Shown: positions 5,152 to 11,465 of the stretch, one piece after another
Layout: every line of letters begins with the position of its first letter
How positions within the stretch are numbered: the stretch's first letter is position 1
From: an uncultured Planctomycetia bacterium
GTDB lineage: Bacteria; Omnitrophota; Gorgyraeia; 1-14-0-20-64-10
NCBI GenBank assembly: GCA_964373715.1
Contig: CAYJVR010000003.1
Location: 47,050 to 111,049 of the forward strand
Length of the DNA: 64,000 bases
Reading direction: 5' to 3'
Notes under the pieces: generated by a model
What the model saw: only the letters and a program-made list of their open reading frames with translations
Told to the model about the DNA's origin: nothing
Databases searched by the model: none
Position numbers and translations under genes: made by a program

Positions 5152-6210
5152 TTAAGAAGGTTCTGCTTCTTCTCCGGGCTCATCAAATTCATCACCCTCT
5201 TCTTCATCGTCATCTTCCGTGAGCCCCTCAAAATCTTCATTCGGCGCCAACTCGCTGAGGAACCGTGTAAAAACCCTTTCAAGAAGCTCATCCTGCCGAT
5301 CCACGTAGATCAGGATCAAGTTCCGCAGCATGCGCGCCAGAATCTCCCGGTTGGTGACCCCATCCATGAACTCCGACTGGTAGGGGTACCCCGCTTCAAC
5401 GATAAACTGGATGCACTCCGCCCGGGTGAGGAACCGCCCCTCGTTAAAAGTATCCAGGTACATTTCTCCCCCGTCCATCTCATATTTCAGCATAAAATGG
5501 CCCGGGATGCCGACCCCTTTAATGGGGAGCTTCAAGCGGTGCGCCAAAAGCATATAAAGGACAGACAAGCTGATCGGAATTCCCAGCTTCCTGTCCATCA
5601 CCCTATTCAGAAAGCTGTTCTGGGGATCAAAATAATCATTCCAATTCCCCCGGAATCCCTCCCTCTTAAACAGGTAGTCGTTCAGGACCCCTAAATGAGC
5701 GCGCAGCTTCTCAGCCGGCTTCAGTTTGGAACGGACCTTCTCCGCCATCTCATCGAGCCGGCGCTGGTAAATCTGAGCGTCAATGTTCGGGTAACTGACG
5801 CGGGCAAGGAGAAAGACCCCCGTCTCCAAGTCGATCTGCTCATCCGGCAACGCGGAAAGGCCCCCCCACTCCGTCAACAACGAGGAGAGTTGGACCTCCC
5901 TCAGGATTTTGCCCGCCTCGACGCGGACGGCGGCGTCTTCGTGAGACTTTGACGCCTTCTTAAGGTATGGGACCGCCTGGGCCCCCATCTCAATGAGCTT
6001 CGCCCGGGCCGTCTCAACAATCTGGGGATCGTCATCAGCCAGAAGTTTCAACAGCGCCAATAGGTTAGATTCAGGTGTAAGATCGGCCATATCTGGAGGT
6101 AATTGGTCACTTAGCTTACCGGAGCCCACAAGCGATGTCAACGCCTCCCTATCGACGGAAAGAGATTGTGGTATATTTATCCTGAAGGAACAACTTGATA
6201 GATGCCTCAA
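5152..6210 (-). CDS. Transglutaminase-like/TPR protein (SirB1/UPF0162 family) with an acidic C-terminal tail
   Basis: 352 aa with helical repeats and a DE-rich C-terminus. The start is probably an internal Met. Confidence 0.45.
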   Translation of the reverse strand: MRHLSSCSFRINIPQSLSVDREALTSLVGSGKLSDQLPPDMADLTPESNLLALLKLLADDDPQIVETARAKLIEMGAQAVPYLKKASKSHEDAAVRVEAGKILREVQLSSLLTEWGGLSALPDEQIDLETGVFLLARVSYPNIDAQIYQRRLDEMAEKVRSKLKPAEKLRAHLGVLNDYLFKREGFRGNWNDYFDPQNSFLNRVMDRKLGIPISLSVLYMLLAHRLKLPIKGVGIPGHFMLKYEMDGGEMYLDTFNEGRFLTRAECIQFIVEAGYPYQSEFMDGVTNREILARMLRNLILIYVDRQDELLERVFTRFLSELAPNEDFEGLTEDDDEEEGDEFDEPGEEAEPS

Positions 6211-6981
6211 CTGCTTGATCTACGGTTGATTGTTGAAGAGGAGGCGCCTCCGCTTGAATTGGAGATGCCGAGGGTTTACCGCCGTCCTCCGATGCCCCCT
6301 CCTCCCCGCCGCAAAAAAGCGGTCCGCAAACTCGCACGGGAAGCCCGTGAGGCTTCCGGCCGATCCGACTGGCCTGCGTTCGGGTTAGCCTATGGAGAGC
6401 TGACCGTCCTTTTCCAGCCGATGATCCAGTGGGGGCTTTCCTGCTGGGAGTATCTGCTTTCCAGTGAAGGATGCCGATTCGTCTGCCGCTTGCCGGAAGA
6501 AAAAAGGTACTGCCGGGGGGATTACCGGGCCTTCTCGGAGAAAGAGTACAATTCACTTGTTTATAAGGCCTTCAAGAACTGCCTTCTCGCCTATTCTTCA
6601 CAGCGGGAACCCGGAGATTTCAGCTTGTTCGTCAGGAGAAACTTCTGGCCCGAACTCCGGGAACAGTATAAAGCGATGGAACAACCTCCGGATCCCCGGC
6701 AGAGGATGCTCACCGGCTACTCGTACCTGCGCTGCGTCCCCTATCAGTTCCTGAACGACCTGCACCATGCCCGGGTCACCAAGATAATCTCCCGCTTGCC
6801 TGAGAAGATGCGCCGGGTCATTGAGCTCTATTACCTGCGTTTCTTCACGAAAGAGGCGGCGCAGGAGGCTTTGGGGATCAACCGGCTGGCTTTCCGGCGG
6901 AGGCAGCTGGCCGCGCTGCGCTGCATCTCAGAGGAAGACCGCTTAAGCTACGTTCTTCTGCGCCAAATCGAGCGATATTAA
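6202..6981 (+). CDS. Hypothetical protein with a degenerate ECF-sigma-like region 2 and a sigma-70 region-4-like HTH C-terminus. Start uncertain.
   Basis: The C-terminal LPEKMRRVIELYYLRFFTKEAAQEALGINRLAFRRRQLAALR resembles sigma70_r4_2. There is an upstream FSLFVRRNFWPELREQYK region-2.2-like segment and a Pro-rich N-terminus. Alternative starts are at 6265, 6292 and 6421. Confidence 0.4.
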   Translation: MPQLLDLRLIVEEEAPPLELEMPRVYRRPPMPPPPRRKKAVRKLAREAREASGRSDWPAFGLAYGELTVLFQPMIQWGLSCWEYLLSSEGCRFVCRLPEEKRYCRGDYRAFSEKEYNSLVYKAFKNCLLAYSSQREPGDFSLFVRRNFWPELREQYKAMEQPPDPRQRMLTGYSYLRCVPYQFLNDLHHARVTKIISRLPEKMRRVIELYYLRFFTKEAAQEALGINRLAFRRRQLAALRCISEEDRLSYVLLRQIERY

Positions 6982-7005
6982 TAAAGGTTCCCGGCAGAAC
7001 CCGCG

Positions 7006-7950
7006 TTACATTTTTACGCCGAGGGCGTTCAGTTGATCCAACAGGGGCCCCATATCGCCGGTGAACTGATGCGTGCGGATGCCGAGCACGTCGGCCGCCT
7101 CGATCAGGTCCCGCCGGTCGTCGATGTAGAACGCGTGCGAGGCCGGGACATTCGCCAGTTCCAGCGCCCGCTTGTAGATCACCGGGTGCGGCTTCAGCGC
7201 TCCCACCTCGTAAGAAAGGGCCCATCCGGTCATCTCCCGCAGAAACGGGTACTCCTCGACGCAGAACTCGAAATGGGCCCGGTTCGTATTCGATACCAGC
7301 ACACAAGGATAGTGGGCCATCAGCTTCCGGAGCAGGAACACCATCTCGACGTTCTCCGAAAAGATCCCGTTCCAGACACAAACAAACTCTTCGTAGTTGA
7401 CCTTCAGGTCCACCAGCCGCTTTAGCCCCTCGTAGAAAGCCCTCGAAGAAATTTTGCCTTCGTCGTGCTGACGCACGAGCGGCGAATCGTAAAAAAGCTG
7501 GTACAACAACTCCGGGTTGCTGGTCGTCCGGTCGGTCACCTTCCTGGCGAGGATCATATGGTCGAAGCGAATGAGCACATTGCCAAGATCGAACAGGAAG
7601 GCCTCGACCGGGGCGGCGGATACGCCAGGATCGATGGCCTGCCCTTTCCCGGCCATCGAAGCAAGCTGCTCTTTGATGATCTGGTCCACGTCCGCCGGCG
7701 CCACATTGTGGTACCACTGATAATCCGGATAGACCATCACGTTAGCCCCTTTGGCACACTGATCCATGCAGCCGGACCCGCTTATCCGGACCTTGCCGCT
7801 GAGCCCGTTCGCTTTCACGTACGCTTTGAGCTTGGTCTTGATCTCTTCCCCATCCACGTTCGCACAGCAGGAGGTGCCGTCTTCCCGCTTGTTGATGCAG
7901 ACGTAGATGTGCTTGAGATATGGGGCATGGGCCGATTCCATGGAAAACAT
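7006..7950 (-). CDS. Fusion protein: thioredoxin-like [2Fe-2S] ferredoxin domain plus HAD-IA phosphatase (YihX-like)
   Basis: The N-terminus HIYVCINKREDGTSCCA...SGCMDQCAKGANVMV has the 4 Cys of the NuoE/Fd-like fold. The C-terminus FLFDLGNVLI...LVSNTN...YIDDRRDLIEAADVLGI matches YihX-type HAD motifs I-III. Confidence 0.65.
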   Translation of the reverse strand: MFSMESAHAPYLKHIYVCINKREDGTSCCANVDGEEIKTKLKAYVKANGLSGKVRISGSGCMDQCAKGANVMVYPDYQWYHNVAPADVDQIIKEQLASMAGKGQAIDPGVSAAPVEAFLFDLGNVLIRFDHMILARKVTDRTTSNPELLYQLFYDSPLVRQHDEGKISSRAFYEGLKRLVDLKVNYEEFVCVWNGIFSENVEMVFLLRKLMAHYPCVLVSNTNRAHFEFCVEEYPFLREMTGWALSYEVGALKPHPVIYKRALELANVPASHAFYIDDRRDLIEAADVLGIRTHQFTGDMGPLLDQLNALGVKM

Positions 7951-8214
7951 TATAACAGAGAGGGTTCGGCGATTAACGCGGGGGAGCGCCGACTCCGGCG
8001 TTCGTCACATATCAGCGCAGGATTCATGGTGTCCGCAAACAGCACACCACCGTTTACAGGAACGGTTGAAAAGCTTCGCGCCGCAGGTCGGACAGTACAG
8101 GTGGCGGGTCATTTCATCTTGAGGGCCGCCGGCAGACGGCCCGGAAAAACCGGCGGGCATCGGGCACTCGGAAGTTTCAGAGGCCGGGGCCTGTTTTTCT
8201 TGCCCCACGCCCCC

Positions 8215-8913
8215 TTAGACCCCGCCCTTCCGGATCGCGAGCTTCACCTCGCCGATCGCGCGGGTCACATTGATCCCCCGGGGACAAGCCTCGACACAGT
8301 TGAAGACGGTCCGGCAGCGCCATACCCCGTCGTTGCCGTTGAGCACGGCAAGGCGCTCCTCTTTCCCCTGGTCACGGCTGTCGAAGATAAACCGGTGCGC
8401 CTGGACAATCGCCGCCGGCCCGACGTAATCCGGGTTCGACCAAAAAGAGGGGCAGCTGGTCGTGCAGGCGCCGCAGAGAATGCACTTGGTCGTGTCTTCG
8501 AATTTGTCCAGTTCGGCGGGAGACTGGATTCGTTCCTTCTCCGGCCTCTCCGATTTCTCAACCAGGTACGGCATGACGGAGCGGTATTTCTGAAAGAAAC
8601 CGTCCATATCCACGATGAAATCCTTTAATACCGTGAAACCTTTCATCGGCTCAATCATAATCGGCTGCTTCACGTGCTTGACCAGCATCTTGCAGGCGAG
8701 ACGGTTCCGGCCGTTGATCAGCATCGCGTCGGAACCGCAGACACCGTGCGCGCAGGAACGCCGGTAGCCTAAACTGCCGTCCAGCTTTCCCTTGATCTCC
8801 TCCAATCCGTCCAAAACCCGATCGGTCGGCTCCATCTCCACCTGATACATTTCCCAATGGGGCTTCTGGTCCTTCTGAGGGTCGAACCGGAGGAGCTTGA
8901 ATGTCACCTGCAT
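8215..8913 (-). CDS. sdhB: Succinate dehydrogenase/fumarate reductase iron-sulfur subunit
   Basis: 2Fe-2S, 4Fe-4S and 3Fe-4S Cys clusters (CxxxxCxxC...CxxCxxCxxxCP). Confidence 0.9.
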   Translation of the reverse strand: MQVTFKLLRFDPQKDQKPHWEMYQVEMEPTDRVLDGLEEIKGKLDGSLGYRRSCAHGVCGSDAMLINGRNRLACKMLVKHVKQPIMIEPMKGFTVLKDFIVDMDGFFQKYRSVMPYLVEKSERPEKERIQSPAELDKFEDTTKCILCGACTTSCPSFWSNPDYVGPAAIVQAHRFIFDSRDQGKEERLAVLNGNDGVWRCRTVFNCVEACPRGINVTRAIGEVKLAIRKGGV

Positions 8914-10640
8914 CAGTATTTTCTCTCTTGTGGTTTGAATTTTGTAACGACCACCGGTTTATAGCTCAACACCACGCGGTCGCCGTCCCTGTTCGCCAGG
9001 CTGTGCCTCAGGAATTTCTCATCGTCCCGTTTCGGGAAATCTTCGCGGCAGTGCGCCCCGCGAGACTCCTCGCGGGCCAGCGCGGCGGTAACAGTCACCT
9101 GCGCGAGGTCCAGCAGGTGCCCAAGCTCAAACGCCTCCAGCAGCTCCATGTTGTAGCGGGTCCCGGTGTCCTGCAAGCGGACGCCGGCATACCTCTGCTT
9201 CAGCCCCTTCACAATATCGAGCACCTTCTCCAAATCCGGCTTCACCCGAAAGACGGAGGCCTTATCCATCATTTCCTTCTGAAGCTCCTTTCGGATGCCG
9301 GACACGCTCTCTTTGCCGCTGCCGCCGCGCAGCGCCACGATCCGAGAGCTGACCGCCTCTTCCGGGTTCGATGGAAGCGGGACAAGGGAGCCTTTCTTCA
9401 CGAACTCGGCAATCTGCTTCCCACCTTTGCGCCCGAAGACGATAATGTCCACAAGCGAGTTGGTGCCTAGCCGGTTCGCGCCGTGCACCGACACACAGGC
9501 GCACTCGCCGGCCGCGTAGAGACCCGGCATCACGGTGTTCTTCTCGTCGATCACCACCTCGGCGTTCGCGTTTGTCGGGATGCCTCCCATCGCGTAATGG
9601 GCGGTCGGCTGAATCGGAATAGGCTGCTTTGTCGGATCCAGGCCCATGTAAGTCTCCACGAAATCGGTAATGTCCGGCAGTTTCTCATGAATCACCTTGG
9701 CGTCCAGGTGGGTCAGGTCGAGATGGACGTAATCCTTGCCGTCAATCCCTCTTCCCTCGCGCACCTCGATCGCGATCGCGCGGCTGACCATGTCCCGCGG
9801 CGCCAGGTCCTTGAGCGTGGGGGTGTAGCGCTCCATGAACCGCTCGCCGCTCTTGTTGCGCAGTATCCCCCCCTCGCCGCGGGCCGCCTCGGTGATCAGG
9901 ATCCCCATCTTGTAAATGCCGGTCGGGTGGAACTGGAAAAACTCCATATCCTCAAGAGGGATCCCCCGGCGGTAAACCACCCCCATCCCGTCGCCGGTCA
10001 GCGTCAGCGCGTTGGAGGTGATCTTGAACATCCTGCCGCAGCCGCCGGTGGCGAACAGCACCGCCTTTGCGTGGAACGTGTGGATCTCGCCGGTCGCTAT
10101 CTGGATCGCCACGACGCCGCAGGCGGCCCCCTGGTTCATCAACAAGTCCACCACATGGTACTCGTCGAAGAAGGTGACCCCCTGCTTGATGCACTGCTGG
10201 TAAAGGGTCTGCAGGATCATGTGGCCGGTCCGGTCGGCCGCGTAGCAGGAGCGGCGCACCGGGGCCTTTCCAAACTCCTTCGTGTGCCCGCCGAACGGGC
10301 GCTGGGCGATCTTCCCATCCGGCGTCCGGCTGAACGGAAGCCCCATGTGCTCCAACTCATAAACCGTTTCAACCGCCTCGCGGCACATCGTTTCGATGGC
10401 GTCCTGGTCGCCGAGATAATCGCCCCCCTTGACCGTATCGAACATGTGCCATTCCCAGCGGTCCTCTTCCAGATTGCCGAGCGCAGCGCCGATGCCCCCC
10501 TGCGCCGTTCCTGTGTGGGAGCGGGTCGGATAAAGTTTCGACAGAACCGCGGTCTTCGCCCCCTCGGAGGCCTGAAGCGCGGCCATCAAGCCGGCCCCGC
10601 CGGCTCCCACGATAATCGCATCGAACTGATGGACGGCCAC
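8913..10640 (-). CDS. sdhA: Succinate dehydrogenase/fumarate reductase flavoprotein subunit
   Basis: 575 aa with an N-terminal FAD GAGGAG motif and conserved HPT/RxxxH regions. Overlaps the sdhB start. Confidence 0.9.
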
Positions 10641-10710
10641 TACCCCACCACCTGTTTAAGCATTTTCATTATAAGTTTGATGCTGTCCCCACCCAAAACA
10701 GGTGGTGGGG

Positions 10711-11100
10711 TTACATGATCTTTCCAGTTGCCGGGTTGAAAAACAGGATGACCCACGTCCCGAGGATGAGAAAAACACCTCCCACGAAGTAGATCCCCCT
10801 GATCGAGATTCCCCTCAGAGGCTGTTTCAGGTAATCGTCCGCCAGAATTCTCAAACCGTTCAAACCGTGGAGCATCGCCAGCCAAAGCATCGCCAGGTCA
10901 TACGCGCGCCAGAAAAGGTGCATGTAACGCTGCGCGACAAAATCATAGCTAATCACGTGGATGCTGTTGAAGATATGCATGATAAACATGTGCCCGACCG
11001 CCAAGAGGACCAGCACGAGGCCGGAGTAGCGCATGAAGAGCCAGGTAAACAGCTCCGAACCTCCGGAGGGCCTGGGGCGCGAACCGTAGGAGGAGCTCAC
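10711..11100 (-). CDS. sdhD: Succinate dehydrogenase hydrophobic membrane anchor subunit
   Basis: Three-TM C-terminal part of the 241-aa ORF. A GTG at 11100 overlaps the sdhC stop (GTGA). An alternative ATG start is at 11034. The upstream part of the annotated ORF is GC-rich and unlikely to be coding. Confidence 0.6.
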   Translation of the reverse strand: MSSSYGSRPRPSGGSELFTWLFMRYSGLVLVLLAVGHMFIMHIFNSIHVISYDFVAQRYMHLFWRAYDLAMLWLAMLHGLNGLRILADDYLKQPLRGISIRGIYFVGGVFLILGTWVILFFNPATGKIM

Positions 11101-11465
11101 GAATGCAAACCCTCCAGGATATGGCCGATCATGATCCAGGCCACCGGCAGAAAAACGAGGAAGAACAGGGCCATCTCGACCATAAACATCTTCTTGTAGT
11201 GGACGGTCGAGGCCGGCCAGAAATCGATGATCACAATTCGGATCCCGTTGAGCGCATGGTACAAAACGGCTGCGAAAAGCCCGATCTCCATCACACCGAA
11301 AAGAGGCATCCGGAAAATCTGCATCAGATGATTGTATCGCTCGGGGCCGAGCATGATCAGGGAGGTGTCGAGGATATGCGTGAAAAGGAACAAGAGCACA
11401 CCGACCCCCGACAACCGATGAAGGGCCCACGACCACTGCCCGATTCCCCCCTTATAAACCGTCAT
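11097..11465 (-). CDS. sdhC: Succinate dehydrogenase cytochrome b subunit
   Basis: 122 aa with 3 TM helices and a heme His in HILDTS. Confidence 0.75.
   Translation of the reverse strand: MTVYKGGIGQWSWALHRLSGVGVLLFLFTHILDTSLIMLGPERYNHLMQIFRMPLFGVMEIGLFAAVLYHALNGIRIVIIDFWPASTVHYKKMFMVEMALFFLVFLPVAWIMIGHILEGLHS

Follow-up and report, generated by a model that had tools for sequence, protein, structure and literature searches.

A 64,000-nucleotide stretch of the assembly GCA_964373715.1, titled as an uncultured Planctomycetia bacterium and placed by GTDB in Omnitrophota (contig CAYJVR010000003.1, positions 47,050 to 111,049 of the forward strand, hereafter the window), encodes a protein in which a thioredoxin-like [2Fe-2S] ferredoxin domain is joined to a phosphatase-type domain of the haloacid dehalogenase (HAD) superfamily. 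We find that this gene, here called Fd-HAD, is genuine and conserved and that its product is a two-module protein. Both modules come from well-known families and it is their pairing that is new: it is rare and occurs only in a single clade within the candidate phylum Omnitrophota, and we found no description of a ferredoxin–HAD architecture in the literature.

The gene and its two modules

The Fd-HAD open reading frame (ORF; 7006..7950, minus strand) is single and continuous, with 314 codons, a TAA stop at 7006-7008 and neither a stop nor a frameshift within it. A search of 5.8 billion clusters returned 80 full-length homologues, counted as 90%-identity clusters, that share the fusion with lengths of 304–355 residues, 46–100% identity and 89–99% coverage, and the fusion is found in dozens of independent assemblies (NCBI, ENA, JGI, Logan). 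The preliminary description of this gene, which had proposed such a fusion and named a break between the domains as a thing to look for, is therefore borne out by one intact frame and by the recurrence of the same architecture. Residue numbers throughout are those of the 314-residue ORF. Translation probably starts at the second ATG (7939-7941), which would give a product of 311 residues, because the 80 homologues have their first residue at the position of Met4 (MES...) and the database protein P0001, 100% identical to the Fd-HAD product, is 311 residues long. The G+C content of the gene (57.8%) is that of the window (57.7%). Where the homologues are named in public annotation they are called 'HAD-IA family hydrolase [Candidatus Omnitrophota]', and the ferredoxin domain is left unannotated.

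The ferredoxin domain spans residues ~9-100 (7651..7926, minus strand) and is supported by phmmer matches, an AlphaFold2 model and cysteine conservation. It matches Aquifex aeolicus Fd4 (1f37; E-value 1.6e-11 with phmmer, ~32-33% identity) and Azotobacter vinelandii FeSI (5abr; E-value 1.7e-8, 29% identity), and it is hit by the NCBIfam models fdxn_Azotob (E-value 8.5e-15; 54.9 bits against an equivalog cutoff of 195) and fdxn_Clost (E-value 1e-12; 48.5 bits against 150). Pfam PF01257, which is modelled on NuoE, scores 14.8 bits, under its gathering score of 24.8. The curated hidden Markov models (HMMs) for ferredoxins of this fold rest on NuoE-type proteins or on narrow equivalogs, and at E-values of 1e-11 to 1e-15 the pairwise matches are significant. 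Modelled alone with AlphaFold, the domain reaches a predicted local distance difference test score (pLDDT) of 77.5, with a β-α-β/β-β-α order and the secondary structure E-H-E-E-E-H. Its best fold matches with Foldseek, in comparisons made against PDB structures, are Fd4 (1m2a/1f37; template modelling (TM) score 0.72-0.74), followed by FeSI (5abr) and then by HydB and NuoE modules.

The fold and cysteine ligands are thus those common to Aquifex Fd4, the Clostridium pasteurianum 2Fe ferredoxin and A. vinelandii FeSI. In the HMMER alignment Cys18, Cys29, Cys61 and Cys65 stand in register with Fd4 Cys9, Cys22, Cys55 and Cys59, and the residues aligned to Cys61 and Cys65 are those replaced in the Fd4 variant structures 1m2b and 1m2d (C55S, C59S). 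The codons lie on the minus strand at 7897-7899 (C18), 7864-7869 (C28/C29), 7768-7770 (C61) and 7756-7758 (C65). The spacing is C-x9-CC...C-x3-C, one residue more in the first interval than the C-x8-CC given in the preliminary description. That description had also set beforehand the question of whether the pattern is conserved in orthologues: a cysteine stands at all four ligand positions in 80/80 full-length homologues, with at least one cysteine of the CC doublet always present and either of the two able to be the one kept. The sole homologue without the first cysteine is an N-terminally truncated sequence. Stand-alone relatives across many phyla have the same four ligands without variation, and residues near the cluster, SGCMDxC among them, do not vary among the homologues. 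Because the ligand set and the fold are intact, we infer that the module binds one [2Fe-2S] cluster through Cys18, Cys29 (or Cys28), Cys61 and Cys65.

A NuoE or HoxE-type identity was rejected (TIGR01958, nuoE_fam, 14.1 bits against a cutoff of 142.4; no NuoF-like neighbour). Thus, of the earlier assignment, the thioredoxin-like [2Fe-2S] ferredoxin stands and the likeness to NuoE does not, the nearest relatives being of the stand-alone Aquifex/Clostridium/Azotobacter type. The NuoE, NDUFV2 and HydB-HydC N-terminal modules share the fold class and cysteine pattern and appear as lower-ranked fold matches (TM score 0.5-0.7), but they are parts of large flavin and iron–sulfur oxidoreductases, their sequence match to Fd-HAD is marginal and such partner subunits are not present here. 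In six homologues (P0008, P0019, P0037, P0052, P0063 and P0075) we noted a low-complexity insertion of 15 or 30 residues (AAGGLSGAASASGSHAHGG...) that sits right after the CC ligand pair, within the cluster-binding loop (alignment A1, columns 33-62).

The phosphatase domain, residues 116-314 (7009..7605, minus strand), is identified by Pfam, TIGR01509, a YihX match and Foldseek. It scores above the curated cutoffs of PF00702 (32.1 against 26.4), PF13419 (27.6 against 23.8) and TIGR01509 (HAD-IA variant 3; 34.4 against 29.4), and matches Escherichia coli YihX (2b0c/8pno) with an E-value of ~2e-23 and 34% identity over 179 residues. Such values, like those of the ferredoxin matches, lie well outside what chance would give. 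In the full-length model (pLDDT 87.9) the HAD part superposes on YihX 8pno with a TM score of 0.84 in Foldseek, and in the AlphaFold2 model the helices at 130-193, between strand 1 and strand 2, form the cap after motif I. YihX, an α-D-glucose-1-phosphate phosphatase of the HAD-IA type (2b0c, 8pne, 8pno), shares this Rossmannoid core and C1 helical cap, but it is a stand-alone protein of 199 residues without a ferredoxin.

All four HAD motifs are present on the minus strand: motif I at D121 (FDLGNV; 7588-7590), motif II at S220-N223 (SNTN; 7282-7293), motif III at K253 (7192-7194) and motif IV at D277-D278 (7117-7122). D121, S220, K253 and D277-D278 show little or no variation across the 80 homologues. 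Motif I has a glycine where the second aspartate stands in most HADs, and the same is seen in YihX, which has the same unusual FDLGNV together with the same SNTN, Lys and DD motifs. A strict YihX identity was rejected: the equivalog model NF006991 gives 91 bits against a cutoff of 295, and the domain is for that reason called YihX-like rather than YihX. The preliminary assignment to a YihX-type phosphatase accordingly holds at the level of motifs, identity and fold, and fails at that of the equivalog. Among side observations, Cys216 (7303..7305), four residues ahead of the motif II serine, is found in 78/88 members of the clade and in 2/~133 other representatives, which have L, I or V there, and His162 (7465..7467) is invariant in the clade and matches E. 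coli YihX His47, the position being Tyr or Phe in most HAD-only relatives.

Residues ~101-115 (7606..7650, minus strand) form an interdomain linker whose length and composition vary among homologues (alignment A1): the distance from the last cysteine ligand to the nucleophile aspartate is 45-83 residues across the 80 homologues, a range of ~38. In the full-length model the linker has a pLDDT of ~51, and this value and the predicted template modelling score (pTM) of 0.68, only indirect signs, do not point to a fixed interdomain interface.

Distribution of the pairing and its separated forms

When 1.84 billion 50%-identity representatives were searched exhaustively with a HMMER profile, two were full-length fused proteins and one was a fragment. 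The remainder of the best 150 matches are mostly HAD-only proteins of ~200 residues (the stand-alone form being ~205), with a few fragments and a few proteins fused to unrelated domains. The impression that the architecture is uncommon was therefore well founded. In 185,579 species-representative genomes the fused form was counted at 16 loci and the split form at two. Every genome locus with Fd-HAD comes from a metagenome-assembled genome (MAG) titled Omnitrophota or, in some third-party assemblies, 'uncultured Planctomycetia'.

The ferredoxin family is otherwise huge. A profile search, used for family size (a single-sequence search with the ferredoxin domain gave two candidates), collected >6,130 clusters from many phyla, stand-alone at ~102 residues and publicly named '(2Fe-2S) ferredoxin domain-containing proteins'. 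Within the best 120 of the family's clusters, 119 are single-domain proteins of 99-129 residues, the exception being P0122 (175 residues), on a 1.3-kilobase contig. Since the ferredoxin and HAD families are elsewhere single-domain, the pairing is specific to this clade. Across the homologues the ferredoxin part averages 67% pairwise identity and the HAD part 62%, so that constraint on the ferredoxin is no weaker than that on the HAD.

The two modules also occur apart. At loci L006 (ENA ERZ27253378), L007 (GCA_016196465.1) and L024 (PCVW01000006.1) separate ferredoxin (102-112 residues) and HAD (206-220 residues) genes follow sdhB as the fused gene does, and overlap by four nucleotides in an ATGA stop/start. 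The HAD protein begins five residues ahead of FDLGNV in L007, as in YihX, and 10-18 residues ahead of it in L006 and L024. In a rough neighbour-joining tree of the HAD domain, split and HAD-only forms are interspersed with fused ones. Two Omnitrophota genomes hold close ferredoxin-only relatives without the HAD (L026, L027). Conversely, at L090 and L091 the orthologous HAD gene has no adjacent ferredoxin and keeps the downstream synteny; as such genes exist, the ferredoxin is dispensable in some lineages. Taken together, the split genes, the HAD-only orthologues and the variable linker indicate that the two parts are putative partners for which covalent joining is not required.

One candidate for a split form, P0088 at locus L089, was rejected: its gene is fused and has a TAG in frame within the linker (nucleotides 142-144), beyond which the frame runs on into the HAD domain. 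The gene call there covers only a truncated HAD, beginning one residue ahead of the nucleophile aspartate, and the TAG could be a sequencing error, a pseudogene mutation or a site of read-through.

What the pairing may do

The sdhC-sdhD-sdhA-sdhB genes (8215..11465, minus strand, assigned by Pfam) lie immediately upstream of Fd-HAD and run in the same direction. Fd-HAD follows directly after sdhB or after a small cysteine-rich ORF, co-directionally, in 13 of the 17 informative loci, in some of them within ~20 nucleotides. Because sdhB is close upstream and no terminator-like site was found between the two genes in the window, co-transcription with the complex II genes is plausible. Fd-HAD probably closes the sdhCDAB unit. 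No sigma-70-like promoter was found near Fd-HAD. The gene block downstream of Fd-HAD, which includes a menaquinone-synthesis gene, is kept in nearly all related loci. Respiratory Omnitrophota classes have complex II and quinone pathways (PMC10066038).

Our preferred reading, which we regard as evenly poised between right and wrong, is that Fd-HAD is a two-module partner protein in which the ferredoxin is an accessory module that ties phosphatase activity to the respiratory state. With its motifs intact, and by established HAD enzymology, the HAD module would hydrolyse a phosphomonoester through an aspartyl-phosphate on Asp121, and Asp121 and Asp277/278 would hold Mg2+. The predicted substrate, a small phosphomonoester, is most likely of the sugar-phosphate type. 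The ferredoxin would take no part in phosphoryl transfer; it would sense redox state, oxygen or cluster status, or dock a partner, and we favour such an accessory role over a catalytic one for the cluster. The two would act as partners across a flexible, variable linker or as two translationally coupled proteins, and phosphatase activity would thereby be linked to the cell's respiratory state, the gene normally ending the sdhCDAB string beside menaquinone-synthesis genes. Cluster binding, phosphatase activity, substrate class and regulatory coupling are all predicted here from sequence.

The case for coupling is made by Rosetta-stone logic, applied to the split genes, by the equal constraint on the two parts and by the specificity of their pairing. 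Redox or iron–sulfur control of the phosphatase, which the preliminary description had suggested, is plausible. A stronger form, in which a [2Fe-2S] switch, co-transcribed with complex II, gates the HAD phosphatase by respiratory, redox or oxygen status, we consider unlikely. If true, it would give the HAD superfamily its first iron–sulfur-regulated member and the stand-alone thioredoxin-like ferredoxins, a large family that has long been a puzzle, their first defined functional partner. We found nothing directly relevant in the literature on the YihX mechanism and on iron-sulfur-regulated HAD phosphatases.

Several observations weigh against the accessory-module reading. The linker is variable and of low confidence, and the pTM is 0.68 despite well-modelled domains; the HAD score lies far under the YihX equivalog cutoff and the substrate is not readable from sequence. 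HAD orthologues without an adjacent ferredoxin exist, as described above, and four loci carry Fd-HAD with no sdh genes upstream. Finally, an adjacency conserved in one phylum-level clade could mirror inherited gene order rather than function.

The main alternative is a possible, if doubtful, account in which neighbours became fused without functional coupling: two genes that lay side by side and overlapped where the sdh string ends would have merged and separated repeatedly through small junction changes, the ferredoxin being an ordinary electron carrier or iron–sulfur protein and the HAD a housekeeping phosphatase. The weight we give it stems from the ease of interconversion and the existence of ferredoxin-less orthologues. 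The ATGA-overlap split forms and their scatter in the HAD tree fit it, as do the occurrence of both HAD-only orthologues and ferredoxin-only relatives within Omnitrophota, the unconserved linker, and the want of a consistent neighbour for the stand-alone ferredoxin relatives across phyla. Yet the pair stays adjacent or fused down to 46% identity while its upstream neighbours change (L003, L016, L020 and L025), the fused state predominates by 16 loci to two in species-representative genomes, and neither family is paired in this way elsewhere among the 1.84 billion representatives, which argues for, without proving, a lineage-specific association under selection. We think it rather improbable that the pair assists or maintains complex II or the quinone system and is co-transcribed with sdhCDAB, serving for example in iron–sulfur cluster supply or repair or in the processing of a phosphorylated cofactor precursor. 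Such a role would account for the position after sdhB and for the presence within the conserved block of menaquinone (VitK2_biosynth), NUDIX and IMPase-like genes, and the stand-alone Omnitrophota ferredoxin relative at L026 also adjoins a VitK2_biosynth gene; but the loci without sdh speak against it, PQQ_2 propeller or toxin–antitoxin genes are tolerated between sdhB and Fd-HAD, and the argument is one of synteny within a single clade. Nor do we know of any Sdh assembly step that needs a HAD phosphatase.

That the N-terminal domain is a degenerate, cluster-less thioredoxin fold with a structural or dimerisation role, or that the ORF is an assembly or frameshift artefact, is hardly credible, and both were rejected as contradicted by the conservation data: the sub-threshold PF01257 score and the in-frame TAG of L089 would agree with them, but the ligand positions are kept in all full-length homologues and are invariant in stand-alone relatives, the SGCMDxC-type residues around the cluster do not vary and the fusion recurs across independent assemblies.

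Known systems offer partial parallels. Stand-alone thioredoxin-like [2Fe-2S] ferredoxins are dimeric and have been structurally known since about 2000, and to our knowledge most of them have no known physiological partner or role. Fd4-type ferredoxins are single-domain, whereas the domain described here is fused or translationally coupled to a hydrolase and has a CC doublet at the second ligand. The plant soluble DGAT3 is an acyltransferase that carries a thioredoxin-like [2Fe-2S] domain alongside non-redox chemistry, the role of its cluster being unresolved (PMC9747089); it differs in being eukaryotic and in having an unrelated catalytic partner, and nothing points to a common descent of the two fusions. 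Phosphatases of this HAD type are modules of multidomain enzymes in the N-terminal phosphatase of soluble epoxide hydrolase, in drimenol synthase and in two proteins that we came across, but there the HAD is joined to catalytic domains from its own pathway, never to an iron–sulfur domain. These two are P0236 (1766 residues), a fusion of a GH77 4-α-glucanotransferase (amylomaltase), a YihX-like HAD and a starch synthase, and P0170 (346 residues), a fusion of a GNAT acetyltransferase and a YihX-like HAD; the former is a weak hint towards glucan or sugar-phosphate metabolism for this HAD type.

A clade in which a ferredoxin is fused or coupled to a specific enzyme provides a concrete, testable partner for a widespread ferredoxin family, and would add an iron–sulfur module to the regulatory repertoire of HAD phosphatases. 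If the modules are functionally independent, it is a lineage-specific gene fusion of limited significance.

Neighbouring genes

On the minus strand of the window the order is queC, sdhC, sdhD, sdhA, sdhB, a cysteine-rich ORF of 67 residues (8005..8208), Fd-HAD and a terminator-like hairpin right after its stop codon (6985..7002), the last being a consensus match only, of a kind no more numerous than in shuffled sequence. An Rfam search of the window gave no match. Beyond Fd-HAD lie a convergent gene of 259 residues with no Pfam match (6202..6981, plus strand), a Transglut_core2 gene (5152..6210, minus strand), VitK2_biosynth (Mqn) and DUF2203 genes, and then SDR, NUDIX, IMPase-like and TrxR-like genes.

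The 67-residue ORF has a C terminus (RH..CP.CG..L.NRSCKWWC..CGYHE[SN]CADG) that is strongly conserved in eight related loci (L004, L005, L006, L014, L017, L018, L019 and L024). Its only Pfam match is a weak one to a zinc ribbon. It adjoins sdhB even where a PQQ_2 propeller gene precedes Fd-HAD, and thus travels with complex II; it may be an undescribed small Sdh-associated protein. The propeller gene, PQQ_2-like and of ~585 residues, lies between sdhB (or the small ORF) and Fd-HAD at L001 (6234..7985) and L006 (3861..5630), and at L014 and L018 there is a gap of ~3 kilobases where L001 and L006 have it. At L003 a nucleotidyltransferase/HEPN pair and a gene of 2835 residues stand upstream in place of sdh.

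Of the 18 distinct loci, fused or split, that have a downstream flank, 13 have the 259-residue gene beside Fd-HAD. The C terminus of its product resembles, by eye, a helix-turn-helix of the sigma-70 region-4 type. Around the stand-alone ferredoxin relatives there is no general neighbour across phyla; the only recurring ones are a zinc-dependent alcohol dehydrogenase (8/106 neighbours) and, by Pfam, Transglut_core2 (6), and both recurrences fall within related lineages. By phmmer, nine MAGs titled Myxococcales or Deltaproteobacteria (L056, L060, L063, L069, L070, L073, L081, L082 and L085) have a ferredoxin relative on the opposite strand to a Transglut_core2 gene, at most ~1.2 kilobases away and mostly adjacent. 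The Transglut_core2 genes of these nine Myxococcota-type loci are homologous to the gene at 5152..6210 of the window, with E-values of 1e-36 to 1e-43, and together with the window they make the ferredoxin and Transglut_core2 families neighbours in two distant phyla.

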